Shown here one piece after another: positions 5,285 to 62,557 of a stretch of DNA of 64,000 nt. The stretch is from Minisyncoccota bacterium (GTDB lineage: Bacteria > Patescibacteriota > Minisyncoccia > Phycocordibacterales > Phycocordibacteraceae). The stretch is taken from positions 356,930 to 420,929 of the forward strand of contig JAGORR010000001.1 in NCBI GenBank assembly GCA_018062765.1. Direction: 5' to 3'. Below the pieces are notes generated by a model, which searched no databases, was not told where the DNA came from, and saw only the letters and a list, made by a program, of their open reading frames with translations. The stretch's first letter is position 1. Each line of letters begins with the position of its first letter. Both the position numbers and the translations under genes were made by a program.

Positions 5285-5935
5285 CTATTTGCTACGGAGC
5301 GCAAGCAAGGAGAGGATGCCGGAGAACGCACCAGCGGACAGTAGTCCGTGCCACAGGAAGTGAGTGCCCATTGTTATGTACTCGCATGCCCACAAATCGA
5401 TAGACCGGAACAGGAGCGCGGATAGGGCGAGCACGAGTGCAAGGATGCCAAGGAGAGCGGCGCGTCCGGATACTCGATAGCTCCTCCACGTGAGTAAAAG
5501 CCCAAGGAGGACAACCGGAATTGCGACGCCTGCGAAAAAAGGTAGTTCAGGGAAGGTGGCATCGACCAGGAGTGCCGAGAGGTATTGGAGCGCGAGAAAT
5601 GCGACAAACATGAGGCCGGCGCCGAGCCATCCGTAGAACGTGCGAGCCCAAAAATATACGAAGAACAGTAGGAATAGAAGTCCTGGTGTCGTGTCGAAGG
5701 CAAGTGCCCACGGGGTGCGCAGTCCGTGCCATAGTAGGCTCCCAACGCCGTTCGTGACTAAGAGAATGCCAAGTACCCAGAGATCGTACGCGCGCGGTGC
5801 GCGGCGGTACACAAGGTAGAGTGCGAGGAGTCCGAACGCGACAATGATGAGGTTGGACCATGTATTCCATGTTTCCGCAGGGAACGCGGTTAACACATCT
5901 GGCGTCTCACAATACTGCGGACCGAAAGGGTACAT
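5285..5935 (-). CDS. Polytopic membrane protein, ceramidase-like
   Basis: 216 aa with about 7 predicted TM helices; ETWNTWSNL motif resembles the alkaline ceramidase family. Confidence 0.4.
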   Translation of the reverse strand: MYPFGPQYCETPDVLTAFPAETWNTWSNLIIVAFGLLALYLVYRRAPRAYDLWVLGILLVTNGVGSLLWHGLRTPWALAFDTTPGLLFLLFFVYFWARTFYGWLGAGLMFVAFLALQYLSALLVDATFPELPFFAGVAIPVVLLGLLLTWRSYRVSGRAALLGILALVLALSALLFRSIDLWACEYITMGTHFLWHGLLSAGAFSGILSLLALRSK

Positions 5936-5987
5936 GCGCCTAGTTTAGCAAATCGCTATTCCTCGACCTCCTTGCTCTCTCCTAGTT

Positions 5988-6025
5988 TGCTCCATCTCGG
6001 TGCCTATAGGCACCGAGATGGAGCA
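5988..6025. repeat. 38-bp perfect palindrome TGCTCCATCTCGGTGCC-TATA-GGCACCGAGATGGAGCA (copy 1 of 2)
   Basis: Second copy at 62403-62440 with a symmetric t>c / a>g change; the CT-rich upstream flank is also similar in both. Confidence 0.8.
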
Positions 6026-6175
6026 AAGAAGTTCACGGCATATCACGTTGTTACATGTACTAGCTCGCGTTTGCGCGCAAAAGCTCGCGCGCACCCAATA
6101 GTACTCACATCCTGTTCCTACTCTCCCCAAAAACCGACGACCCAAGGCAGATGCGTGCTATTTTTATACATATAT

Positions 6176-6712
6176 ATGTCATTCGCGGACCCGCGAGAGA
6201 ATGTTCTGCAGATAGGCCTTCATGACGGCATGAAGGTGGGAGACTTGGGCGCTGGATCGGGTCACTACGCGCTTGCTGCAGCTGGCGCCGTCGGAGACAC
6301 CGGTCGCGTGTACGCGATCGATGTCCAGGAGGAAGTCGTCATGCATATAAGGGACGCGGCACATCGCGCAGGGCTCAAGAATGTCGAGACGATATGGGGA
6401 GACTTCGAACGCCCTGGCGGCACCAAGCTTAAGGACGGAGTCCTCGATGCTGCCATACTCTCGAATGTCATGTTCCAGGTGGAGCATCATACGAGCGCGA
6501 TCTCGGAGGTGAAGCGCATCGTGCATCCTGGCGGAAAGGTGCTTGTCATCGACTGGGCGGGTTCCTACGGGCACTTGGGGCCTCATCCGGACCAGGTCGT
6601 TCCTGAGTCAGAAGCAGAGCGATTGTTTATACAGGCAGGATTCCACAAGGCGAAGAGTTTTCGCGCAGGTCCCCATCACTACGGTATCCTGTTTACGACA
6701 CCCGCCTCATGA
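6176..6712 (+). CDS. Class I SAM-dependent methyltransferase
   Basis: VGDLGAGSGHYAL SAM-binding motif I; start placed at the MSFADP Met at 6176, because the upstream part of the track ORF overlaps the palindrome and promoter region. Confidence 0.65.
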   Translation: MSFADPRENVLQIGLHDGMKVGDLGAGSGHYALAAAGAVGDTGRVYAIDVQEEVVMHIRDAAHRAGLKNVETIWGDFERPGGTKLKDGVLDAAILSNVMFQVEHHTSAISEVKRIVHPGGKVLVIDWAGSYGHLGPHPDQVVPESEAERLFIQAGFHKAKSFRAGPHHYGILFTTPAS

Positions 6713-8007
6713 TGCCGAACCTGAACATTCGTCCGTTCCAACTCATCGTGATCTCCGTCTTCGGAGTACTGGCGCTCGTAGGTGTGTTCGTGTTCGCCAC
6801 CTACGAGCGCAACGCAACAGGAAGCACGAGTGCGGGCAAAGTAGTTATCTGGGGCATTATCCCCGAGCGCGAGATGCAGGGGGCGATGGAGGAGCTGACG
6901 CGAAACAGCGACTATCGCAACGTGTCGTATCTGTACGTGCGGCCCGAAGCATTCGCTTCAGAGCTTGCGAACGCGCTTGCTGAGGGTAATGGCCCCGATC
7001 TGGTACTTATCTCCCAAGAGGAGCTCGCAAGCCAAGAGTCGAAGCTCTCGCTCATCTCTTTCAAGTCCGTTCCGGAAAGGACGTATCGTGATATGTACGC
7101 CACCATATTCGAGATATTCCTTACGAATGAGGGCACATACGGATTCCCGCTCGCGCTCGACCCTATGGTCATGTATTACAATCGACAAACGCTCGCGAAC
7201 GCAGGCATCGCGACGCCGCCCACAACCTGGGCCGGGATACGCGGTCTCGTGGACACGCTTACGAGCCGGCAAGGGGATACTGTCGCGAAGTCGGCAATAC
7301 CCTTCGGGAGCTACGGGAACGTGGATAATGCGCGCGGAATTATCTCGACCCTGTTCTTGCAGGCAGGCTCGCGTCTCTCCGAGCGAGGCACGAGCGGCAT
7401 ACGCGCCACATTCACTAGCGACGCGGGTGGAGGAAGCCCGGTCCAATCCGCTCTTCTCTTTTATGCAGAGTTCGCTGACCCGGTGAAGCCGTTTTATACT
7501 TGGAACAGCGCGCGCGAATCGTCCCGACAAGCGTTTCTTTCTGGAACCTTGGCGTTCTACCCGGGCTACGCGTCGGAGGCGCGTTCCCTAGCCGCAGCAA
7601 ACCCTAATCTCGACTTTGATATGGCGCGCATGCCGCAGCCGGAGGCAGGCGGCACTAAGGCGGTGTACGCGAAAGCATACGCGCTCGCGATAACCAAGGT
7701 ATCGCGCAATTACCACGGGGCATTCTCTGCAGCGCTCGGGCTTACGGAGGCCCGCATAATGTCGCTTGCTGCGCAGAGTGCCGGTCTAGCACCTGCCATG
7801 CGCACCCTGATAGCGAAGCCGCCCGCGGACCTCTACTCACCGGTCTTCTATCCGGATGCGCTCATTGCGCGCGGTTGGCTCTCCCCAGCGCCCTCCGTCA
7901 CGGACGGCATCTTCGCTGGTATGATGCAGAACGTGACTTCAGGACGCTTTACTATCGCGCAAGCAATCAAGTATGCGTCAGATTCCATCGACGCGTCGTT
8001 AAGGTAA
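6709..8007 (+). CDS. Membrane-anchored extracellular solute-binding protein (ABC-type SBP family 1-like)
   Basis: 432 aa; N-terminal TM anchor then a periplasmic-binding-protein-like sequence; ATGA overlap with the upstream gene; no cognate permease or ATPase adjacent. Confidence 0.45.
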   Translation: MMPNLNIRPFQLIVISVFGVLALVGVFVFATYERNATGSTSAGKVVIWGIIPEREMQGAMEELTRNSDYRNVSYLYVRPEAFASELANALAEGNGPDLVLISQEELASQESKLSLISFKSVPERTYRDMYATIFEIFLTNEGTYGFPLALDPMVMYYNRQTLANAGIATPPTTWAGIRGLVDTLTSRQGDTVAKSAIPFGSYGNVDNARGIISTLFLQAGSRLSERGTSGIRATFTSDAGGGSPVQSALLFYAEFADPVKPFYTWNSARESSRQAFLSGTLAFYPGYASEARSLAAANPNLDFDMARMPQPEAGGTKAVYAKAYALAITKVSRNYHGAFSAALGLTEARIMSLAAQSAGLAPAMRTLIAKPPADLYSPVFYPDALIARGWLSPAPSVTDGIFAGMMQNVTSGRFTIAQAIKYASDSIDASLR

Positions 8008-8011
8008 GGCA

Positions 8012-8464
8012 ATGAAACGCACAGCCATCTTCGTTTCTGCACTCTTGCTGACTCTTTCAGCGATGTCCGCCCCAGTGTACGCGCAGGACATGAATCTTGG
8101 GGGTGGAGCGACCGGTAACGCTAGTACCAATCTCGGCGGAGGTCCGTCAGGTAACGGTACCAATCTGGGGGGAGGCTCTCAGGGGTGCGGATTCCTTTTG
8201 AATCCACTCGACAACGAGTGCAATAGCGACATGACGCTCAATGATCTCCTTAGCAAAATATTGAACGTCATCGTCCAGATAGGTGTAGTCGTGCTCACTA
8301 TGATGCTCGTCTACGTTGGTTTTCTCTTTGTCACTGCCCAAGGGAACCCGGAAAATCTTTCCAAGGCCCGGAGCGCACTCATATGGACGATAATCGGCGG
8401 CTTCCTCGTGCTTGGCGCGAGCGTCATTGCAGAGGCGGTTAAGTCGACGGTTGAAGCGCTCTGA
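8012..8464 (+). CDS. TrbC/VirB2-type pilin-like protein (paralog 1 of 5)
   Basis: Signal peptide, Gly/Asn-rich low-complexity segment, then two TM helices separated by NPENLSKARSAL; the same motif occurs in the 22412 and 23928 proteins. Confidence 0.6.
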   Translation: MKRTAIFVSALLLTLSAMSAPVYAQDMNLGGGATGNASTNLGGGPSGNGTNLGGGSQGCGFLLNPLDNECNSDMTLNDLLSKILNVIVQIGVVVLTMMLVYVGFLFVTAQGNPENLSKARSALIWTIIGGFLVLGASVIAEAVKSTVEAL

Positions 8465-8465
8465 T

Positions 8466-8738
8466 ATGGACGGCGAGGAGGTTATCGTCGTGGGACAGAA
8501 AGGCACCTTCGCCTCGATGGTGTACAAGTTCACCGGCTTCATTGACTCCAGTATTATCCCGTTATTGTTTGCGGCCGCATTCCTCGCGATGCTGGTGGGC
8601 ATATTTCGCTATTTCATGATTCCGGGCGAGGAGAATTTGCAGAAGGGTCGCCAGTTTTTGCTGTGGGGCGGTATCGCTTTTGTGTTCATGTTCCTTATCT
8701 GGGGGCTCGTAAACCTACTCCTCGATTCGGTATTCTAG
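8466..8738 (+). CDS. TrbC/VirB2-type pilin-like protein (paralog 2)
   Basis: 90 aa; two TM helices flanking EENLQKGRQFLLWGGIAFVFMFLIWGLVNLL; ATG lies 1 nt after the paralog-1 stop. Confidence 0.55.
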   Translation: MDGEEVIVVGQKGTFASMVYKFTGFIDSSIIPLLFAAAFLAMLVGIFRYFMIPGEENLQKGRQFLLWGGIAFVFMFLIWGLVNLLLDSVF

Positions 8739-8786
8739 CTGTTTATAAGTACACATAGCCTGGCTCAGTACTGATACGCTAAACGT

Positions 8787-9215
8787 ATGAAAAAGACATT
8801 CTCCGCCCTATTGTTTTCACTAGCGCTCATGTTCACACTTACACCGTCCATTGCCTTTGCGCAGGGCCAGCAGCAGCCGCAACCTGATCAGCAGGGCACG
8901 GGTGAGTCACAGCCGAGCGAGCTCGAGCTTCGTATCGGATGGCTTCTCGACTTCGTCGATGGGTACGTCATTCCGCTCATATTCGGACTCGCATTCGTCG
9001 TATTCATCTGGTTCGTGTTCGTGTACTTCATCCTTGGCGGAGCTGAGGAAGAGCAGCGCGCTAAAGGAAAGCAGTTCCTGTTGTGGAGTCTTATTGGGTT
9101 CGTACTCATGCTCTCCTTGTGGGGTATCGTGAACCTGCTTCAGAACACCATAGGATTCGATAATAACTCCAAGCCGTGTCTGCCGGTGTTCGAACAGGAC
9201 AACGAAGACTGCTAA
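8787..9215 (+). CDS. TrbC/VirB2-type pilin-like protein (paralog 3)
   Basis: Signal peptide, Gln/Pro-rich region, two TM helices with EEQRAKGKQFLLWSLIGFVLMLSLWGIVNLL. Confidence 0.6.
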   Translation: MKKTFSALLFSLALMFTLTPSIAFAQGQQQPQPDQQGTGESQPSELELRIGWLLDFVDGYVIPLIFGLAFVVFIWFVFVYFILGGAEEEQRAKGKQFLLWSLIGFVLMLSLWGIVNLLQNTIGFDNNSKPCLPVFEQDNEDC

Positions 9216-9299
9216 TGCGGTTGTCCCCACAGTGCACCCCATACGATTGACTTCGCGCCAAAGCCGCTTACCCTTAGTACATATCCGCTTACCACTGCT

Positions 9300-9689
9300 A
9301 TGAAGAAAATTCTCTTGCTCGTCGCTCTGTTCACCATCCCGGCCATTGCGTTCGCGCAGTTTGGCGAAGGCGGTAATAATCAGGACCTTGGCGATCTCGG
9401 TCAGGAGTTCACTGACATCATCAATAACATCGCGGTTCCGCTTATCTTCGCGCTCGCGTTCGTCATCTTTATTTGGGGAGTATTCAAGTACTTCATTCTT
9501 GGTGGCGGAGACGAGGAGGCTCGCGAGAAAGGTCGCGACCTCATGATTTGGGGACTTCTGGGATTCTTCTTCATGATTTCAGTCTGGGGACTCGTGAATC
9601 TCGTCGTGAACACCATCGACCTGGAGCAAAGCGGAGCACCGGACGAAAATGACTTGCCGGACGCTCCGGGAGTCAGGGACTCGAACTAA
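9300..9689 (+). CDS. TrbC/VirB2-type pilin-like protein (paralog 4)
   Basis: Signal peptide, two TM helices with EEAREKGRDLMIWGLLGFFFMISVWGLVNLV. Confidence 0.6.
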   Translation: MKKILLLVALFTIPAIAFAQFGEGGNNQDLGDLGQEFTDIINNIAVPLIFALAFVIFIWGVFKYFILGGGDEEAREKGRDLMIWGLLGFFFMISVWGLVNLVVNTIDLEQSGAPDENDLPDAPGVRDSN

Positions 9690-9705
9690 CTCATAGTGTA
9701 GGCGA

Positions 9706-9730
9706 AAAGACCCGCTCGGCGGGTCTTTTG
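9706..9730 (+). terminator. Intrinsic terminator AAAAGACCCGC-tcg-GCGGGTCTTTT
   Basis: Hairpin plus T-tract after paralog 4. Confidence 0.6.
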
Positions 9731-9783
9731 CTATCCCCGATTAGTACGTGCCATAGATGAGTGCGGATATATACTGAACAGTA

Positions 9784-10053
9784 ATGAACGAAAGAGTAGA
9801 GATACCGCTTCTTGAGGGCATCAAAACGCAGATAGTGAATCCCATCATCACGCTTCTAGCGCTTGGAGCATTTGTAATGTTTCTTTGGGGTCTCGTCGTA
9901 TTCATATGGAATGCCGGGGATGCGGAGGCGCAGTCGACGGGGAAGCGCGTCATGCTGTGGGGTGTCATTGGGCTTGTTGTCATATTCGGTGCGTGGAGCA
10001 TTGTGGAGCTTATCGGAAGCACGATAGGGGTAGACCCAAATCAGTACCGGTAA
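9784..10053 (+). CDS. TrbC/VirB2-type pilin-like protein (paralog 5)
   Basis: 89 aa; two TM helices with AEAQSTGKRVMLWGVIGLVVIFGAWSIVELI. Confidence 0.55.
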   Translation: MNERVEIPLLEGIKTQIVNPIITLLALGAFVMFLWGLVVFIWNAGDAEAQSTGKRVMLWGVIGLVVIFGAWSIVELIGSTIGVDPNQYR

Positions 10054-10103
10054 AGAAGAAGGCCGCCGTCACCATCAGGTGCGGCGGCCTCAAGAGGAAA
10101 GAA

Positions 10104-10610
10104 CTAGTTCGGACCTTCTATCCAGTAATGGAAGACGAAGGGTTCTGCTGTAGAGCTTCGGATGCGAAATCCATCAGCAAACTCGCAGCCTTCTGCTGTC
10201 CAGTTGATCCAGGCTTCATGCACGTAGCACTGGGCCTCGTAGCCGCTCGTCTCTAGCACGTGAAGATCAGCGGCAGGGCAGTTTCTCGGCATCCAAAGCT
10301 CGGGAGCATGCGACCAGTCGTCTGGGGACGACTTGGCCGGAGCTATTCGCGCCTGGGGTCTCGTCTCGCCACTTGGCTTGCCGCAGATTGTTGGCACGTT
10401 TAAGCGCTCATCTTGAGACGAACTTCTGTAGCCACGCTCATTTGTAGCCTGCGTCGGATTCGATTCACCCCAAAACTGGAAGTGGTAGCCTAAGAATCCG
10501 AGCACGCTCAGAGCGATCGTAACCCAAAGCGCAATGTCCCACATGAAGGAATTGCCGCTCTTCTTCGCCTCACCAGGCGAGCCTGCTGAGGGTGTAGCGT
10601 GAGATGCCAC
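10104..10610 (-). CDS. Membrane-anchored hypothetical protein with a Cys-containing C-terminal domain
   Basis: 168 aa; one TM helix (WDIALWVTIALSVLGFLGY); directly downstream of the SPFH gene on the same strand. Confidence 0.4.
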   Translation of the reverse strand: MASHATPSAGSPGEAKKSGNSFMWDIALWVTIALSVLGFLGYHFQFWGESNPTQATNERGYRSSSQDERLNVPTICGKPSGETRPQARIAPAKSSPDDWSHAPELWMPRNCPAADLHVLETSGYEAQCYVHEAWINWTAEGCEFADGFRIRSSTAEPFVFHYWIEGPN

Positions 10611-11898: not shown

Positions 11899-11927
11899 AT
11901 TATACACCACAGCCCACACAATGTCAA
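11899..11927 (-). promoter_or_regulatory. Consensus sigma70-type promoter (TTGACA-17 nt-TATAAT) upstream of the SPFH gene
   Basis: Reverse complement of plus 11922-11927 is TTGACA and of 11899-11904 is TATAAT, with a 17-nt spacer. Confidence 0.5.
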
Positions 11928-11974
11928 GCGTCAAATCAAGAAAAGAGCTCATAGGTACGGGCTCGTTTGTCGAT

Positions 11975-12100
11975 TGCTGGGGGAGGGCTTGGTCAGGCGC
12001 TCATTCGTCGCCGTCGCTCCTCACTCCGCCTGACCACCCTCGCGTGACAGACTTTGCTAAGTCTGTAGACCGCGCTCGGTTTCAAGTCTCCACCCCATGC
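11975..12100 (-). repeat. tRNA-Leu-associated structured repeat unit (copy u2, minus orientation)
   Basis: 5' end GCATGGGGTGGAGACTTGAAAC (reverse complement of a T-loop-like GTTCAAGTCTCC); hairpin ACAGACTT-AGCA-AAGTCTGT; 3' end CCAAGCCCTCCCCCAGCA mimics the tRNA-Leu 3' end. Confidence 0.6.
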
Positions 12101-12128
12101 CATTGCGGCTGCTTGCGCAGCCTTTATG

Positions 12129-12252
12129 TGCTGGGGAGGGCTTGGCGAAGCGTCTGCCGATCGTCGTCACTCCCGGCTCCGCTCGGCCCTGCTCGCACGA
12201 CACGGCGTGCTCGCCGCGTAGACCGTGCTTGCGTTCAAGTCTCCACCCATGC
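12129..12252 (-). repeat. tRNA-Leu-associated structured repeat unit (copy u1, minus orientation)
   Basis: Same architecture as u2; hairpin CGCGGCG-AGCA-CGCCGTG; 3' end CCAAGCCCTCCCCAGCA. Confidence 0.6.
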
Positions 12253-12282
12253 CTCTGCGCCAGGCTTGTGTCTGGTTACGTG

Positions 12283-12364
12283 TGCTGGGGAGGAGACTTG
12301 AACTCCTAACCCGTGAGGGACATGGTCCTAAGCCATGCGCGTATACCAATTCCGCCACCCCAGC
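12283..12364 (-). tRNA. tRNA-Leu (anticodon TAG), class II with a long variable arm
   Basis: Manual fold: acceptor GCTGGGG/CCCCAGC, D stem GCG/CGC, anticodon stem CATGG/CCATG with loop CTTAGGA, T arm AGGAG-TTCAAGT-CTCCT, discriminator A. Confidence 0.8.
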
Positions 12365-12406: not shown

Positions 12407-12479
12407 GCGCCTATAGCTCAGTTGGTAGAGCAGATCCCTCTTAAGGATAAGGTCCCTGGTTCGAGCCCAGGTAGGCGCA
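12407..12479 (+). tRNA. tRNA-Lys (anticodon CTT)
   Basis: Manual fold: acceptor GCGCCTA/TAGGCGC, D arm GCTC-AGTTGGTA-GAGC, anticodon loop CTCTTAA, T arm CCTGG-TTCGAGC-CCAGG. Confidence 0.85.
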
Positions 12480-12486
12480 CTAACAC

Positions 12487-12517
12487 GAAAAAGTCCTGGT
12501 CTGCACCAGGACTTTTC
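12487..12517 (+). terminator. Intrinsic terminator after tRNA-Lys (AAAAGTCCTGGT-ctgc-ACCAGGACTTTT)
   Basis: Perfect 12-bp stem plus U-tract. Confidence 0.65.
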
Positions 12518-12725
12518 GGTTAGTGCGCGACGGAACCATGTTTTGCGAGCGCGCAAAACCGGTGAGCCAGGGTCGTAGCCTGAAGTGAGTGTCGACGAGC
12601 TTCAGGGCTATGACCACGTGCGAGGCACAGCGATGTTTTGTCTGCAGATAAAACCACGAGCCGGGATAGCGGAATTTCATGAATAATGACTAATGAAATA
12701 TCCGTGACCACAAATTGCAAAACGT

Positions 12726-13562
12726 TTAGATACCAGCGTACTTTCTGAATCGTCCAATTAGGTCAGTCGTGAGGGTCCCTGGCTTACCGCTGCCTACCTT
12801 ACGGTCATCGATGCGGATGACCGGCACTACGTCCTTGAACGACGAGGTGATAAACACCTCATCAGCGTTCCAAACGTCGTCCATGCTGACTGCGCGCTCT
12901 TCGGTCTTGTAACCGGCTTCAGCCGCAAGCTCTAGGATGACCTTCCTGGTAATGCCATGCAATACGCCCTCCTTCGCCGTGATAACCACTTTGTCCTTCA
13001 CGATGAACGCGTTTGATGTCGAGCACTCGAGCATGTTGCCGTTTGCGTGGTACAGGATTTCGAGTGCGTTCGCGGCTCGTCGCTTAGGCTGTAGCATCAC
13101 CGCATTTATGTAATTGATGGTCTTGTACTCCGGCATCATGCGCTGGTGCTCGCTCGTGATGAGAGAAACGCCATCAGTAAACACTTCGGGCGCAAGCACA
13201 AATGCCGGCTCGCAATTTATGAAGAATGTCTCGCGTCCAGGAACGTGCTCAAGCCCTCCGAGCGCTTCTCCGCCAGTAAGAACGACACGTACGGTTGCGC
13301 GCGTATCTGGTGAGTTGCGCTTGGCGATCTCTATCAGGGCAGCCTCAAACGCGTCGCGCTCGATAGGAATGGTAAGGGAGAGGGCAGCCGCTGACTTCAG
13401 TAACCGCTGCCAGTGGTCTTCGAAGCGAAACGGCTTTCCGCCAATGACCGTAATGCCCTCATAGACACCGTAGGAGCGTAGGACGCCGAGATCGAGGATG
13501 CCCACCTTCGCCTCCTGAAGCGGAAGAAATGCCCCATTAAGAAAGGCGACAGGCTCGTTCAT
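12726..13562 (-). CDS. Aminotransferase class IV (branched-chain or D-amino-acid aminotransferase family)
   Basis: Fold-type IV PLP-enzyme-like sequence; start set at MNEPVAFLNG (13562), because the upstream part of the track ORF is antisense to tRNA-Leu(TAA). Confidence 0.6.
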   Translation of the reverse strand: MNEPVAFLNGAFLPLQEAKVGILDLGVLRSYGVYEGITVIGGKPFRFEDHWQRLLKSAAALSLTIPIERDAFEAALIEIAKRNSPDTRATVRVVLTGGEALGGLEHVPGRETFFINCEPAFVLAPEVFTDGVSLITSEHQRMMPEYKTINYINAVMLQPKRRAANALEILYHANGNMLECSTSNAFIVKDKVVITAKEGVLHGITRKVILELAAEAGYKTEERAVSMDDVWNADEVFITSSFKDVVPVIRIDDRKVGSGKPGTLTTDLIGRFRKYAGI

Positions 13563-13738: not shown

Positions 13739-13810
13739 GGCCCGATGGTGAAGTGGTAACACGGGGGACTGCAAATCCTCTATGCGCGGGTTCAATTCCC
13801 GCTCGGGCCT
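13739..13810 (+). tRNA. tRNA-Cys (anticodon GCA)
   Basis: Acceptor GGCCCGA/TCGGGCC, anticodon loop CTGCAAA, T arm GCGGG-TTCAATT-CCCGC, discriminator U as is typical of tRNA-Cys. Confidence 0.8.
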
Positions 13811-13872
13811 CAAATTGGACGCGCAGCGTCTAATAGCGGGAATTGAAGGCCGTAGCTATATCGTGCGAGCAC

Positions 13873-13918
13873 GCACGATTGCGAGGCGGGGTCACGAATA
13901 AGGTCTGCTCGACGGAGC
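13873..13918. terminator. Long bidirectional terminator hairpin (GGTCACGAATAAGGTCTGCTC-gacg-GAGCAGACCTTATTCGTGACC)
   Basis: 21-bp perfect inverted repeat between the tRNA pair and the convergent rbfA gene. Confidence 0.6.
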
Positions 13919-13949
13919 AGACCTTATTCGTGACCAGTACCGCTCTGTC

Positions 13950-14303
13950 TTAAATTTGGTTCCCTAACTCATCCATTCGCTGACGGTTCTTCTCCCCAGC
14001 ATCGTGCTCAAACTTTACAGACGGAATGGCGCGCAGACGGGACTTCTGCTTGAGGAAGGTCCGGAATTCATCGCGGTTGCGATTTAAGAAATCTAGCGCG
14101 TAGGGAAGGGCGGTGTCAGGGAACACGGTGACGAACAAGGTGGCGCGGTCACCTCTTGAGGAGAGTACTGCGCGTGTCACCGTTATAAGCGATGTGTTAT
14201 TCGATTCGCGCGCAATAAACTCAGCCGCTAGATGCGCTACCTGCTCCTCGGCGCGCTCGCCGTGATGATTTGCCTTGCCGCCCCCGGTAAATGGAAGGCT
14301 CAT
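13950..14303 (-). CDS. rbfA: Ribosome-binding factor A
   Basis: 117 aa; sits downstream of infB with an ATGA overlap, which is the conserved infB-rbfA synteny; RbfA-like size and sequence character. Confidence 0.6.
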   Translation of the reverse strand: MSLPFTGGGKANHHGERAEEQVAHLAAEFIARESNNTSLITVTRAVLSSRGDRATLFVTVFPDTALPYALDFLNRNRDEFRTFLKQKSRLRAIPSVKFEHDAGEKNRQRMDELGNQI

Positions 14304-22096: not shown

Positions 22097-22198
22097 CCAC
22101 CGATAGCCAGCAGCTGCTGGCTATCGTCTTTATATGGGTGCGGCTCCCAGGTGGTCACAAATACTTCCGCGTCGACACTTGGAAGTTTCGCGACCCCG

Positions 22199-22239
22199 CC
22201 AAAAAGGAAAAACCTGGAGCAGTCCAGGTTTTTCCTTTT
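22199..22239. terminator. Bidirectional terminator AAAAAGGAAAAACCTGG-agcag-TCCAGGTTTTTCCTTTTT
   Basis: 17-bp stem flanked by A/T tracts, immediately 3' of the minus-strand tRNA-Trp. Confidence 0.6.
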
Positions 22240-22313
22240 TGGCGGGCCCAGTAGGAATCGGACCTACGCTAACGGTTTTGGAGACCGTTGTACTACCACT
22301 ATACGATGGACCC
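22240..22313 (-). tRNA. tRNA-Trp (anticodon CCA), CCA end encoded
   Basis: Minus-strand fold: acceptor GGGTCCA/TGGGCCC, anticodon stem ACGGT/ACCGT with loop CTCCAAA, T arm GTAGG-TCCGATT-CCTAC, discriminator G + CCA. Confidence 0.8.
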
Positions 22314-22411: not shown

Positions 22412-23368
22412 ATGCGCCGCTTGGCACTTTACCTCCTCGCAGCTTCTCTCATACCGCTTGCCGCGGCGGCACAAGGGCTTCCGTCAGGCTCAATCATCCC
22501 GGACCTCGATGAGGGAGATCAGAACCTGCGCACGTGCGCTGCAGGTTGGAAGGCGGTTCTCATAATATCGGGAGGGTTCCTAGAGCTCGCAATTTACATC
22601 GCGATGCTTATCGCCGTTCTCGTTATCGTCTATGCAGGGATTATATTCCTGTTTAATGCGACAAACCCCGAGAACCTGTCGAAAGGGAAAAAGATTCTTG
22701 GAAACGCGGCGATTGGTCTTCTTATTACGCTTTGCGCATGGCTACTTGTGAATACGGTGCTCACAAGCCTGGGCGCAGGAGACATCGCAAGCCGCACAAG
22801 CGTCATAGGTTCAGGCGGCTCGCTCTGTATCACGATACAACCTCCGCAATCTCAAATACCAACCAGTCAGGAAGTAGCTGCCGGTTTGCCACTGGCACCA
22901 CCTCCTCGAGGTACCGGCTCGTGTGACCCGATTGCTGTGCGCGCAGCCGCAGCGGCCGGTGGGTACCAAATCTCGGAGCGAGAGGCGAACACATTTGCCT
23001 GCCTTGCAGGTCCCGAGAGCTCGTGCGGCGCAAATGTCGATGGTGCGACGACGCCTTCTGGGCAGCGTACGAGTGCAGCGGGTCCGTGGCAGAACATTCT
23101 TGGTTTTAAGGATAAGTGCCACTCACTCAACATCCCCGCCTGTGGCAACTTGCAGTGTCACCAGGCATTTTCAGGCGGAGTGGAGAAGTCTGATCCGGCC
23201 TCGAGAGCTCTCGCTGCCAAGTGTCGTCAGGCACTTGCAAACCTTACGTGCGCTGCCGCCGCAGCCGTGTGTCTTAATAACGCGAGCGGAAACGACTTCA
23301 GCGACTGGACTGCGGATTCGCGCAGCTCGAAACAGAAGAAGTGTATTCGCGACCATGCGGGGCTCTAG
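22412..23368 (+). CDS. Pilin-domain protein (TrbC/VirB2-like two-TM module) with a C-terminal Cys-rich extracellular domain
   Basis: 318 aa; signal peptide; TM-NPENLSKGKKIL-TM module like the paralogs at 8012 and 23928; about 200-aa C-terminal region with at least 14 Cys. Confidence 0.5.
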   Translation: MRRLALYLLAASLIPLAAAAQGLPSGSIIPDLDEGDQNLRTCAAGWKAVLIISGGFLELAIYIAMLIAVLVIVYAGIIFLFNATNPENLSKGKKILGNAAIGLLITLCAWLLVNTVLTSLGAGDIASRTSVIGSGGSLCITIQPPQSQIPTSQEVAAGLPLAPPPRGTGSCDPIAVRAAAAAGGYQISEREANTFACLAGPESSCGANVDGATTPSGQRTSAAGPWQNILGFKDKCHSLNIPACGNLQCHQAFSGGVEKSDPASRALAAKCRQALANLTCAAAAAVCLNNASGNDFSDWTADSRSSKQKKCIRDHAGL

Positions 23369-23383
23369 CGCTATACTTTACCT

Positions 23384-23926
23384 ATGAGCCGAACAGCCTT
23401 TTGGATACTCGCACTCGCATCGGTTGGGCTTTTGGCTGCTGGCACACTTTTCTATCTCAATTTGAATCCTGAGCCGGAAGCTCCTCCCATGGTAACTCCT
23501 GACCCATTTGGGAGTACTAACGATGGCGTAATTATTACGGCCGTGGGCGGGGAGGACATACGCGCTCGTGACTTCGTTAACGATGGCGAGACTGAACCTG
23601 ATCCCGGTAATCCCGGAACGTACTTCCTTGCCGGTTATTTCGGCTACTGCGACGGGGACGAGGAGTGTGAACCTATTGCAACAAGCGACTTCAACATTAA
23701 GTACGATAGCAAGATTGATGCCTTCACGATCGGTCTTGCCACCGAGCCGATAGGTGAAGTTAGGAAGCGTGCAGAAGCATTTCTAATGAAGAAGCTCGGG
23801 ATTGGGGAAAATGATATGTGTGCACTCAATTACTATGTCGGCACTTCGTATTGGGTAAATGAAACTTACTCGGGAGGTAATCTTGGGTGGAGTTTCTGTC
23901 CCGGCTCCATAGCACTTCCTGACTAG
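23384..23926 (+). CDS. Secreted/anchored hypothetical protein
   Basis: 180 aa; N-terminal hydrophobic signal/anchor; no recognisable domain. Confidence 0.4.
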   Translation: MSRTAFWILALASVGLLAAGTLFYLNLNPEPEAPPMVTPDPFGSTNDGVIITAVGGEDIRARDFVNDGETEPDPGNPGTYFLAGYFGYCDGDEECEPIATSDFNIKYDSKIDAFTIGLATEPIGEVRKRAEAFLMKKLGIGENDMCALNYYVGTSYWVNETYSGGNLGWSFCPGSIALPD

Positions 23927-23927
23927 T

Positions 23928-24839
23928 ATGCGACGTACTACGACATTGCTCCTGCTTCTCCCGTTGCTACTTACAGCTATGCCCGCGCATGCGCAGTTCA
24001 CCGAGGGCTGGACCATCGTCCCGGCAGCGTGCCATTCGTGCCCTGCGGCTTGGGTTTGCGTACTTGAGATGCTCAACAATCTGGTGACGCTCATCATGAC
24101 CATCGCGGTCTTAATCGTCGTACTCGTCATCACCTACGCCGGCATCCTGCTTGTGTTTACTGCGACGAACCCCGAGAACAAGAGCAAAGCAAAAAGCATG
24201 CTTATTAATGCTGCGGTAGGTCTCGTCATCGCTCTTGGCGCGTGGCTCATCATCGATAAGGTCCTCGAGTCTTTGGGTGCGGGCGGTATAGACGAGACAA
24301 CGCGCGTTATTGGTACCGGTGGCAGCGCATGTGTTGTTGCTCAGGATCCGATCACTGAGCCGCCTGAGGGAACGGATCCATCGCCTATTACTCCCGGTCC
24401 TGGCGGTGGAGGCAGCGGCGCTAATTGCCCGGTCCCGGCGGCGTCCGGGATGGTGGCATTCCCTGCGGAGGCTACAAGCGGTGAAACTGAATACGCAACA
24501 CCGAGTACGGTCGAGAACTTCCTTGCGATGCGCGCCGCAGCGCTTGCCGATGGAATTGACATTAAGGTGACTGACGGATATCGGTCCGAAGCCGAACAGG
24601 TTCAGTTATGGTATCGCTACAATCAGGACACGAGCCAAGTCGCAAGGCCGTGTACGCTAGGTGGCAGCGGTTCAAACCACAACTCAGGTGTCGCTCTGGA
24701 CCTCACCGTCGGCTGTAGAAAGACAGATAGTTCCTGTGATAGCGCCCAATACCGATGGCTTAAAGCAAATGGTTCTCAGTGGGGCTTCAACAACAATTTG
24801 CCTACCGATACGGTGCACTGGTCACCATCGGGTCGCTAG
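23928..24839 (+). CDS. Fusion of a pilin-type two-TM module with an M15 (VanY-like) D-Ala-D-Ala carboxypeptidase domain
   Basis: N-terminus TM-NPENKSKAKSML-TM; C-terminus contains ...DGYRSEAEQVQLW...SNHNSGVALDL, the hallmark Zn-peptidase M15 motifs (SxHxxGxAxD). Confidence 0.55.
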   Translation: MRRTTTLLLLLPLLLTAMPAHAQFTEGWTIVPAACHSCPAAWVCVLEMLNNLVTLIMTIAVLIVVLVITYAGILLVFTATNPENKSKAKSMLINAAVGLVIALGAWLIIDKVLESLGAGGIDETTRVIGTGGSACVVAQDPITEPPEGTDPSPITPGPGGGGSGANCPVPAASGMVAFPAEATSGETEYATPSTVENFLAMRAAALADGIDIKVTDGYRSEAEQVQLWYRYNQDTSQVARPCTLGGSGSNHNSGVALDLTVGCRKTDSSCDSAQYRWLKANGSQWGFNNNLPTDTVHWSPSGR

Positions 24840-27297: not shown

Positions 27298-28059
27298 CTA
27301 AAGATCGCCAAGGTGCTTGCGATACTCCAGGTACCGTTCTTGAGGGTTCGCATGCGACAGATAGTCGCGGCCGATAATCGTGACTGTCGCGCCGCTCTCG
27401 TAGGCGAACAGAGTTGTCTCGATGTTCTTCTGGTCATGTGCATTGCCGCCCGGAAGACGTGTTCCAGGAACAACAGTCCGAAGGTCGGGGAACTTCTCCG
27501 AGATCTCCCTCACTTCGTTCGCAGCACAGACGACGCCCCAGAGTCCGGATTCGAGTGCGAAACCGGCAAGCTGCAGCACCTTCTCAAGGCGCCGCATGCC
27601 GTACATCTCGACGCACTGCCGGTCGCTGAGCGAAGTCGGCACGGTAACGCCCAGGATGCCGAAGTCGGTACCGCCGTTGTCATCGAAGGCCTTCACTGCC
27701 GCGCGCATCATCTCCCTCCCGCCGGTAGTGTGGACGGTGATGAGAGAAGCGCCCGCTCTCGTGAACTTCGCGACGCTGTTTGCGACCGTGTTAGGTATGT
27801 CGTGCAGCTTTGGGTCTGCGAAGACATGTCCGTACTCTTTCAGAATCTCGATGAGCGTCGTAGCACCTACTTCGCCGATGAGCGCGTCATTTACCTTGAC
27901 GCCGAGGAAACGCTCCTTGTTGTCGGATGCCACCGATATCGCGGTGCCAAGAGACATCCCGTCGAGCGCGAGAAACGCAGACTCATGCAGGCGAAACACA
28001 CGTGTCGATTCGGTCACAGTGACCTCCCAAGGCTCAGAATTGAGCCATTCCGGACGCAC
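27298..28059 (-). CDS. pyrF: Orotidine 5'-phosphate decarboxylase
   Basis: KLHDIPNTV active-site motif (K.HDIPNT) and an N-terminal LALDG...KVND segment. Confidence 0.8.
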   Translation of the reverse strand: MRPEWLNSEPWEVTVTESTRVFRLHESAFLALDGMSLGTAISVASDNKERFLGVKVNDALIGEVGATTLIEILKEYGHVFADPKLHDIPNTVANSVAKFTRAGASLITVHTTGGREMMRAAVKAFDDNGGTDFGILGVTVPTSLSDRQCVEMYGMRRLEKVLQLAGFALESGLWGVVCAANEVREISEKFPDLRTVVPGTRLPGGNAHDQKNIETTLFAYESGATVTIIGRDYLSHANPQERYLEYRKHLGDL

Positions 28060-28115
28060 CCTACCACAGAGACTACATTCTCAAAAACCGAGGAGTGACG
28101 TAGGATGTGAGCTAC

Positions 28116-28196
28116 GCCGGGGTGGCGAAATGGTAAACGCAGAGGATTCAAAACCCTCCGCCGCAAGGCTTGAGAGTTCAAGTCTCTCCCCCGGCA
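28116..28196 (+). tRNA. tRNA-Leu (anticodon CAA), class II
   Basis: Acceptor GCCGGGG/CCCCGGC, D stem GCG/CGC, anticodon loop TTCAAAA, 13-nt variable arm, T arm GAGAG-TTCAAGT-CTCTC, discriminator A. Confidence 0.8.
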
Positions 28197-28216
28197 CAAA
28201 GCGCGAAGCGCGCATG

Positions 28217-28364
28217 GTCGGGGAGTACCCTGCCTGCGCAGGGTACGTGAGAGACTTGAACGCCGGAGCGATGATTCGTCAGCAGACGAATCCGCGAGGC
28301 AAGGCTATGAAAATTCTCGAGTGACGGCGAGAGAATTATTCCTGGCCAAGCCTTCCCCGGCACA
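28217..28364 (+). repeat. tRNA-Leu-associated structured repeat unit (copy B, plus orientation)
   Basis: 5' GTCGGGG pairs with 3' CCCCGGC-A (acceptor-like); internal GAGAGACTTGAACGCCGGAGCGATG; hairpin GATTCGTC-AGCA-GACGAATC; 3' end CCAAGCCTTCCCCGGCACA. Confidence 0.6.
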
Positions 28365-28385
28365 TGAAGCACGCGCAGCGTGCGA

Positions 28386-28511
28386 AGGGCTCGTGGGTGG
28401 GACTTGAACGCCGGAGCGATGCTTCATCAGCAGATGAAGCCGTGAGCTGGGGTCGCGGAAAATGCCATGTGACGACATGGCATTTATTCGCGACCAAGCC
28501 ACCCCGGCACG
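28386..28511 (+). repeat. tRNA-Leu-associated structured repeat unit (copy C, plus orientation)
   Basis: GGGACTTGAACGCCGGAGCGATG; hairpin GCTTCATC-AGCA-GATGAAGC, which is compensatory relative to copy B; second hairpin ATGCCATGT-gacg-ACATGGCAT; 3' end CCAAGCCACCCCGGCACG. Confidence 0.55.
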
Positions 28512-28555
28512 TGACAAATATGTTGCGCGCATAAGCGCATGCTAAAATCCTTCAC

Positions 28556-62279: not shown

Positions 62280-62402
62280 AAGAGTATTCCCGTTTGCGTA
62301 TGAGTTGCCTCGGGTGCTAGCTGCCCTGGTTGGTCGTGCGTTGCCCGGCAGCGCGTATCAAGCAGCCCGCTTCAGAACTTCTCTTTCCTCCTTACTTTCA
62401 CT

Positions 62403-62440
62403 TGCTCCATCCCGGTGCCTATAGGCACCGGGATGGAGCA
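62403..62440. repeat. 38-bp perfect palindrome TGCTCCATCCCGGTGCC-TATA-GGCACCGGGATGGAGCA (copy 2 of 2)
   Basis: Same element as 5988-6025, with a symmetric compensatory change. Confidence 0.8.
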
Positions 62441-62557
62441 ATGCATAAATAGGGCATATATGTGCGAGTCATACATACACGAGCGGTACATATGATGCGG
62501 TGGGAGTTGAAATGGTGTGCTGAAACTTGAGTGCAGGAGCTGCGTTATACTTTGCAT

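Follow-up and report, generated by a model that had tools for sequence, protein, structure and literature searches.

Within a window of 64,000 nucleotides from a Minisyncoccota bacterium (assembly GCA_018062765.1, contig JAGORR010000001.1, positions 356,930 to 420,929 of the forward strand), the gene for tRNA-Leu(CAA) is followed by two short structured units of a family that is apparently undescribed. The term "window" denotes this whole stretch throughout. Patescibacteria, to which the organism belongs, have very small genomes, and the contig itself measures 638 kb. The tRNA gene (28116-28197, plus strand) was called by ARAGORN and by the Rfam tRNA model (55 bits), and units B (28217-28364) and C (28386-28511) are present 3′ of it, where a first-pass annotation of this DNA had placed them. 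The strings quoted in that annotation were all found, namely GAGAGACTTGAACGCCGGAGCGATG, the hairpins GATTCGTC-AGCA-GACGAATC and GCTTCATC-AGCA-GATGAAGC, the arms TACCCTG..CAGGGTA, the hairpin ATGCCATGT-gacg-ACATGGCAT, and the ending CCAAGCC..CCCCGGCAC. The units belong to a real repeat family, as had been proposed, with a conserved, covarying structure in the same orientation as the tRNA; each element is non-coding and about 125 nt long (about 150-180 nt with flanks).

Units behind tRNA-Leu(CAA) and their tRNA-derived clamp

The template copied into both units is the final ~22 nt of tRNA-Leu(CAA), GTTCAAGTCTCTCCCCCGGCAC. Between the tRNA and unit B lies a spacer hairpin, GCGCG-AAG-CGCGC (28201-28213), evident from the sequence and the spacer fold and devoid of a T-run. 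Unit B opens with a box termed X′, GTCGGGG (28217-28223), which repeats the tRNA acceptor 3′ strand CCCCGGC in inverted form, with one G-U pair; the acceptor-like closure attributed to B by the earlier annotation, GTCGGGG with CCCCGGC, is indeed paired in the minimum-energy fold. Next come an accessory hairpin predicted by folding (Ha, 28225-28246), GTACCCTGC-CTGC-GCAGGGTAC, with a CUGC loop, and the anti-T box GAGAGACTTGAAC (28249-28261), which serves as the 5′ strand of the closing stem P1 and is, over 13 nt, the exact reverse complement of the tRNA T-loop plus the 3′ strand of the T-stem (GTTCAAGTCTCTC). Two hairpins, found both by RNAalifold and in folds, occupy the interior: P2 (28262-28300), with an AGCA loop and a GGA/GA internal loop, and the long P3 (28303-28347), with the apex GAGTGACGGCGA. 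The unit ends with T′/X, CCAAGCCTTCCCCGGCACA (28346-28364), which supplies the 3′ strand of P1/P0 and repeats the tRNA 3′ end directly, with 10 nt exact. The covariance model places B at 28243-28368 (plus strand; 124 and 121 bits).

A second spacer hairpin, recognized in the sequence as GCACGC-GCA-GCGTGC (28369-28383), separates B from C. Unit C, placed by the covariance models at 28391-28515 (plus strand; 111 and 104 bits), has the order 5′ box GGGTGGGACTTGAAC, P2, P3, and CCAAGCCACCCCGGCAC. Its clamp fits the T-stem of a tRNA-Leu(CAA) of the type found at L029 (GTGGG/CCCAC) and not that of the window tRNA; this and the other L-numbered loci were retrieved by pattern scans of genome and metagenome collections followed by the covariance model. 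B and C are 71% identical, for which reason Tandem Repeats Finder misses them, and both fold more stably than shuffled sequences (z = -6.2 and -6.0, respectively). With regard to their hairpins, the covariation between the P2 stems of B and C stands, whereas the "four compensatory changes" counted at first amount to two compensated pairs (A-U to C-G and G-C to A-U), which involve four nucleotide substitutions. The "extra perfect hairpins" reported for B and C both exist but are not equivalent: that of B is an accessory of the 5′ flank, and that of C is the apex of P3, a hairpin present in every unit.

The copying of the neighboring tRNA is a property of the whole family. The 3′ arm of the closing stem is a slightly altered direct copy of the final ~20 nt of the tRNA gene, from about position 61 to just past the discriminator (typically exact over 10-17 nt, up to 20), and the 5′ arm is the reverse complement of the same region, T-loop included, covering the T-loop, the T-stem 3′ strand, the acceptor 3′ strand, and sometimes the trailer. 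In agreement with the first-pass description, each unit finishes by repeating the tRNA 3′ end and has imperfect inverted repeats that close it; these terminal repeats form the P0/P1 clamp (for example, GGGACTTG/CAAGCCC together with the acceptor-strand copies) and are locus-specific rather than constant across the family. The 5′ box even tracks unusual T-loops, such as TTCAATT in the window tRNA-Cys, TGCAAGT, TGCAATT, and TGCAAAT in tRNA-Met genes, and TTCGAGT in a tRNA-Leu(GAG). The direct repeat of the tRNA end varies in length, mostly 10-20 nt but up to 36 and at least 59 nt.

The match to the flank was controlled by requiring an exact copy of at least 7 nt of the 14-nt tRNA tail, a version based on gapped alignment having proved too permissive. 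By this measure, an exact inverted copy was present in 56% of units against their own tRNA and 4% against other tRNA types, and an exact direct copy in 60% and 3%, respectively. The inverted copy X′ was found for 21 of 44 tRNAs with a unit versus 3 of 37 without one. It often extends into the non-tRNA trailer (e.g., ...GCGCAAA), which identifies its template as genomic DNA rather than a mature tRNA ending in CCA. The tRNA genes in the window do not encode CCA; most continue with N-CA (discriminator, C, A; for instance at 28196-28198 and 12282-12284), and the trailing CA belongs to the repeat copied into the units.

A conserved fold on the tRNA strand

Two further Leu units lie behind tRNA-Leu(TAG) (12282-12364, minus strand; ARAGORN and Rfam tRNA model), the anchor of the first locus in the window: A1 (12123-12251, minus strand; 134 and 105 bits) and, in tandem with it, A2 (11970-12098, minus strand; 127 and 97 bits). 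Alignment of the four Leu units and folding with RNAalifold, as suggested in the first-pass annotation, gave a common three-way junction made of the closing stem P1, the AGCA-loop hairpin P2, and the long hairpin P3 with the apex GYGACGRC; covariance model R1 was built from the same four units. Their common geometry is GACTTGAA, 60-63 nt, GYGACGRC, 17 nt, and CCAAGCC. The pattern GACTTGAA-N55-70-GYGACGRC-N14-20-CCAAGCC matches only these four units in the window, and none is expected by chance (100 shuffles).

Across 59 distinct units, aligned by fitting to the covariance model, standard pairs occupy 93.0% of pair cells compared with 66.3% after shuffling, a level that none of 500 shuffles reached, and 36 of the 38 pairs show changes on both sides. 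When the partner columns were slid as a control, pairing dropped to 35-39%. G-U and U-G pairs together number 114 versus 37 for A-C plus C-A, and a G-U pair in lower P3 is conserved in 41 of the 59 units. The sense strand, that is, the tRNA strand, folds more stably than the antisense strand in 56 of the 59 (mean difference 7.5 kcal/mol; p = 6e-11), and purines occupy 74% of unpaired positions. The folding strand is thus the tRNA-sense strand, and this fold most likely exists as RNA, read through from the tRNA. A CUGC tetraloop is very common in the hairpins between tRNA and unit (ACTGCT, TCTGCA, CCTGCG), being found at 28234-28237 in the window and in spacer or accessory hairpins at L070, L066, L057, L036, L013, L028, L065, L068, and others. 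The idea that the loop of the accessory hairpin (often CUGC) kisses that of P2 (AGCA) was considered and dropped, as no covariation was seen.

The transcription context differs among loci. A hairpin lies between the tRNA and X′, and in 30 of 43 loci it is terminator-like with a T-run; at the window Leu loci the spacer hairpin has no T-run, and no promoter was predicted from the tRNA to the units at these loci. P2 and P3 themselves lack T-runs, so the module is not an intrinsic terminator. At L036, the unit is situated in a tRNA cluster between tRNA-Asp and tRNA-Thr and stops ~9 nt before the latter, from which it follows that it must be transcribed there. It is this unit, along with the sense-strand folding, that supports the alternative raised in the first-pass annotation of a co-transcribed structured RNA, which comes second to the insertion reading. 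In minimum-energy folds of tRNA plus units (28116-28513, and 11968-12364 on the minus strand), the cloverleaf is lost: the tRNA 3′ half is predicted to pair with the 5′ anti-tRNA box of the unit, and the tRNA 5′ acceptor strand with the terminal copy of the last unit.

Occurrence, gain, and loss

The covariance model recovered 61 units in 41 Patescibacteria sources, the window included. The true genome matches are all Patescibacteria metagenome-assembled genomes, labeled Nomurabacteria, Adlerbacteria, Paceibacterota, and "Saccharibacteria". A same-strand tRNA lies directly upstream of about 50 of 62 units, the strand of the unit being that of the tRNA throughout the family, and 13 tRNA species are represented, with Leu(TAG, CAA, GAG, CAG), Val, Asp, His, Arg(GCG, TCT), Met, Cys, Lys, and Trp as anchors. 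The first unit starts 19-73 nt behind the tRNA and the second at ~160-250 nt. Several apparent orphan units sit behind the 3′ exons of intron-split tRNA genes; such exons (…gtgcacggcggaggttgcgggttcaagtccc…) precede units at L023 (~1030-1095), L083 (~40-110), and L019 (~6640-6700). Group I introns at position 35/36 have been reported in tRNA-Asp/Asn of Patescibacteria (PMC13011429), which fits the exons upstream of some of these orphans; that paper accounts solely for the intron-split tRNA-Asp/Asn genes, and the element itself is absent from it. Three other orphan units share an upstream GGTTCTAAC(A/T)T... (L009, ~5590-5620; L031, ~1740-1770; L082, ~960-1000), a sequence that could derive from the 3′ terminus of some other RNA or of an intron.

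The site of B and C varies among relatives. Between PyrF and a ParB gene, tRNA-Leu(CAA) is followed by no unit at L028 and L029, one at L030, and two in the window. The empty sites that the first-pass annotation had recommended looking for therefore exist: at L028 (ParB 81% identical) only 51 nt separate the tRNA from ParB, and at L029 (ParB 80% identical) the tRNA is inverted. At L030 (ParB 77% identical), the single unit lies between perfect 36-nt repeats of the tRNA end plus trailer. This series of 0, 0, 1, and 2 units at an orthologous site favors serial insertion or duplication at the tRNA 3′ end, one of the explanations first offered. In the same way, the Met(i) site holds a unit at L036 and L031 and none at L013 or L015. 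A tandem pair at L070 carries a perfect repeat that spans 59 nt or more, up to the edge of the compared span, and indicates a recent tandem duplication. Modules 94-95% identical were found behind tRNA-Asp (L015) and an initiator-type tRNA-Met (L031), and likewise within L031 behind tRNA-Met(e) and at an orphan site; in each near-identical pair the 5′ box is retailored to the local tRNA. Contigs of the same strain from other samples were identical, with no insertion polymorphism among them.

In the window, a broader covariance model (R2) run with filters off identified eight credible units: A1, A2, B, and C, one behind tRNA-Cys, two behind tRNA-Lys, and one behind tRNA-Trp. A weak match at 1751-1852 (E = 0.03) was treated as chance. 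Of the six tRNA transcription units that have their 3′ flank within the window, five carry one or two elements after them, the best preserved being those behind the two Leu isoacceptors, and copies within the window are only 65-71% identical. The unit behind tRNA-Cys(GCA) (tRNA 13739-13811; unit 13831-13956, plus strand; 68 and 95.5 bits) has a 5′ box, GCGGGAATTGAA, that mirrors the tRNA-Cys T-loop TTCAATTCCCGC. The first-pass statement that tRNA-Leu(TAA) lacks a unit holds for a unit of its own, but tRNA-Cys with this unit directly follows it. Two degenerate units (12529-12728, plus strand; 66 and 21.6 bits) follow tRNA-Lys(CTT) (12407-12480) and are preceded by a long terminator-like hairpin, the base of which takes in the tRNA 3′ end (12470-12530). 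Behind tRNA-Trp (22240-22313) there is a deletion remnant consisting of P3 only (22135-22256, minus strand; 34 bits). It comes after a perfect 24-bp palindrome (22195-22246; CCCGCCAAAAAGGAAAAACCTGGA / TCCAGGTTTTTCCTTTTTGGCGGG) that contains the tRNA 3′ end CCCGCCA and whose left arm starts with the final 7 nt of tRNA-Trp. The Trp site of L028 carries two fuller units, and the window remnant corresponds to a deletion within that array. The Trp and Lys 3′-end stems could compete with the acceptor stem or be substrates of double-strand-specific RNases.

The genes on the 3′ side of the units are of diverse kinds (ParB, a 412-aa protein without a Pfam match, MiaA-like, tRNA-Thr, and others), and the neighborhoods contain housekeeping genes such as those for a class IV aminotransferase, RbfA, IF-2, ClpB, MiaA, peroxiredoxin, PyrF, ParB, and RelA/SpoT, with no recombinase close by. 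Long spurious open reading frames (ORFs) cross tRNAs and units in the window (27422-28324 and 11921-12301, both plus strand), and a 54-aa ORF was called across the L030 unit; gene callers could label such ORFs hypothetical proteins. Clusters of small genes adjoin tRNA loci at 22412-24836 and ~6100-10600 (the latter by synteny with L249) and encode T4SS-pilin (PF18895) and TrbC-like domains, with a VanY peptidase domain fused to one of them. Separately, a perfect palindrome of 40-42 nt (TTGCTCCATCTCGGTGCCTATAGGCACCGAGATGGAGCAA) occurs in two intergenic copies 56 kb apart (5986-6027 and 62402-62441); the copies differ by a compensated change (T/A to C/G) and both stay perfect. This pair could be an operator or another small repeat family.

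Searches for known families found no counterpart. Rfam 15 contained no relevant family at gathering or permissive thresholds for the window units and eight other loci, and the element is not described in the literature searched. In IMG/VR, a strict pattern gave no match, and two relaxed patterns gave 142 distinct loci, none of which was confirmed by the covariance model; phage and plasmid records gave no match by BLAST. Several other identities were also set aside. In an integron attC site, CTTGAAC and CCAAGCC would have to fit the R″/R′ core RYYYAAC/GTTRRRY, and on inspection of the consensus they do not; no integrase lies nearby. A cis-regulatory leader or riboswitch was ruled out because the class of the downstream gene is not constant, and a retroviral-type primer-binding site because the inverted copy matches the genomic trailer and not CCA.

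Interpretation

We tentatively place units B and C, at a probability of roughly 0.45, in a Patescibacteria family of tRNA-tail elements that are dispensable, duplicative or mobile, and constrained in structure, and that are probably read through as RNA. The reading draws on the observed architecture, covariation, strand bias, tRNA association, flank tailoring, site polymorphism, and tandem duplication. The element would exploit its complementarity or identity to the tRNA 3′ end to spread by copying or recombination, acting as a folded target mimic or a guide, and the module would be re-installed behind other tRNAs with new target-derived arms. Candidate routes by which the arms may be made are folded single-strand recombination with a target-mimic stem (as in the CTX-phage attP and attC), hairpin template switching, and guide-like pairing. 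Once in place, the direct repeat of the tRNA end would permit unequal exchange, leaving 0, 1, or 2 copies and decay products. The effect on the host would be neutral, or at most that of a generic structured tail on the tRNA transcript.

Several points weigh against this reading. None of the units was found to have a transposase, integrase, or reverse transcriptase nearby, and no related transposase gene was detected at 9.7-31.3 kb of the window or beside syntenic loci, the whole genomes not having been searched. The identity of only 65-71% among copies within the genome speaks against a recent burst, and the terminator-like hairpins speak against efficient co-transcription at the 30 loci that have them. 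The covariation counts come from an alignment fitted to the covariance model, with which independent MAFFT/RNAalifold results agree in direction. In addition, strong covariation, conserved purine-rich loops, and a conserved G-U pair are what would be expected of a host-functional RNA.

Small structured intergenic repeats are known in several forms, including miniature inverted-repeat transposable elements (MITEs), repetitive extragenic palindromes (REP) with BIME and REPIN, Rickettsia palindromic elements, and mitochondrial double-hairpin elements. Like MITE- and REP-type repeats, the units are short, non-coding, and intergenic, are closed by inverted repeats, keep a hairpin through compensatory changes, vary in copy number, are present or absent between relatives, and leave decayed copies. 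Unlike them, they are anchored strictly to the 3′ ends of tRNA genes in one orientation, take their terminal inverted repeats from the adjacent tRNA, and are only 65-71% identical within a genome; to our knowledge, no cognate transposase or RAYT is known for tRNA-tail units. Islands and prophages of tyrosine integrases resemble them in the repeat of the tRNA 3′ end, from T-loop/T-stem to just past the discriminator, and in tandem occupancy of one tRNA, but measure kilobases rather than 125-180 nt and carry an integrase; the units also have an extra inverted copy of the tRNA end and at least 13 tRNA targets.

Folded single-strand recombination sites offer another comparison. Both the CTX-phage attP(+) and the integron attC act as such sites, and the CTX stem reproduces the chromosomal target duplex. 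The units share with these sites inverted arms that, with a spacer of tens of nucleotides, fold on one strand, a structure kept over sequence, and an arrangement in arrays; they differ in that the "spacer" is a conserved three-way-junction module, in the lack of cargo, and in the absence of the attC core consensus; no Xer or IntI link was seen, although none was specifically sought. Similar to plant mitochondrial t-elements and mascRNA, the closing stem would imitate the acceptor/T-arm stack and could be a substrate of RNase P or RNase Z, but the clamp pairs through the discriminator into the trailer and there is no T-loop; the mascRNA model of Rfam reached only 17 bits, and on the tRNA itself. 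The omega RNA of IS200/IS605 and the bridge RNA of IS110 likewise combine a conserved scaffold with ~20 nt matching the flank of each locus. In contrast to those RNAs, no TnpB, IscB, or IS110 recombinase lies near the units, the scaffold is unrelated (no Rfam match), and within the element itself a sense copy pairs with the guide-like segment.

The strong signals of sense-strand folding make a host-functional non-coding RNA a serious rival, if a less probable one than the tRNA-tail element. The unit would be co-transcribed with the tRNA, its clamp would mimic an acceptor/T-arm minihelix, and RNase P, RNase Z, and perhaps the CCA-adding enzyme would excise a stable RNA of ~125 nt. Such an RNA might take part in tRNA metabolism, serving perhaps as a decoy or sponge for factors or fragments recognizing the tRNA 3′ half, and turnover between loci would be due to ordinary duplication and gene conversion. 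Besides the covariation, sense-strand bias, purine-rich loops, and conserved G-U, this proposal is consistent with the constant orientation and spacing behind tRNAs, the lack of a terminator or promoter between tRNA and units at the window Leu loci, the L036 unit embedded between tRNA-Asp and tRNA-Thr, units that end in CCA though the tRNA gene does not (L001, L009, and L019), and the maintenance of the family in many Patescibacteria sources. However, the site can be empty in close relatives, units decay, and terminator-like hairpins stand ahead of most units. The clamp also pairs past the discriminator into the trailer (TTTGCGCGAGAG/CTCTCGCGCAAA at L004; the repeat at L070), which argues for a DNA copy instead of an acceptor end with free NCCA.

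Considerably less probable is a reading in which the ~20-nt anti-tRNA box, restrained by its sense copy, would serve as a guide on a folded single strand (RNA or single-stranded DNA), pair with the 3′ end of a tRNA gene, and direct insertion or copying to that place, with P2-P3 as a scaffold for a host or distantly encoded recombinase. If true, no smaller self-targeting mobile element built from a guide and a scaffold would be known, and its guide would be rewritten whenever it reached a new tRNA.

It is unlikely that the units are scars of integrases, each being the attR-side remnant of an island or prophage that integrated at the tRNA T-loop/3′ end and lost its interior. Tyrosine integrases that cross over in the T-loop leave direct repeats of the tRNA 3′ end, as seen here from position 61 to just past the discriminator, and tandem arrays would also fit. 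On the other hand, none of the 61 units adjoins an integrase or cargo, the DNA between the tRNA-end repeats comprising only 150-400 nt of non-coding sequence; IMG/VR contigs and phage and plasmid records yielded no units; attP arms have neither an inverted copy of the tRNA end nor covarying hairpins; and one module stands behind 13 tRNA species, although the usual target of an integrase is a single one.

Decayed tRNA pseudogenes or partial tRNA duplications without a structure of their own, named beforehand as the finding that would overturn the proposal, would account for the tRNA-derived ends and the acceptor-like closure of B but are very improbable: ARAGORN calls only the eight true tRNAs in the window, the Rfam tRNA model (RF00005) is silent on the units at E up to 10, and only the terminal ~20 nt derive from a tRNA, the remaining ~85-nt module having no tRNA counterpart and covarying behind unrelated tRNAs. 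Least credible of all is the suggestion, made because two Leu isoacceptors bear units (the best-preserved in the window), that the element targets or is coupled to leucine tRNAs, since units stand behind Cys, Lys, and Trp in this window as well and behind Val, Asp, His, Arg, and Met elsewhere, and tRNA-Leu(CAA) at L028 and L029 has none.

The tRNA-tail elements unite traits of structured intergenic repeats with those of tRNA-targeting integrative elements; what sets them apart is the locus-specific clamp of inverted and direct copies derived from the tRNA. For annotation they pose a problem, as they resemble tRNA ends, break assemblies, and create spurious ORFs. Under any reading, the family is a clean candidate for Rfam with strong covariation. 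Should the elements be selfish, they would exemplify a new strategy by which an element lacking proteins homes to a target that is essential and conserved, with both ends borrowed from the target sequence; if they are functional RNAs, they would be a widespread, hitherto unknown player in the tRNA biology of a major uncultured bacterial group.

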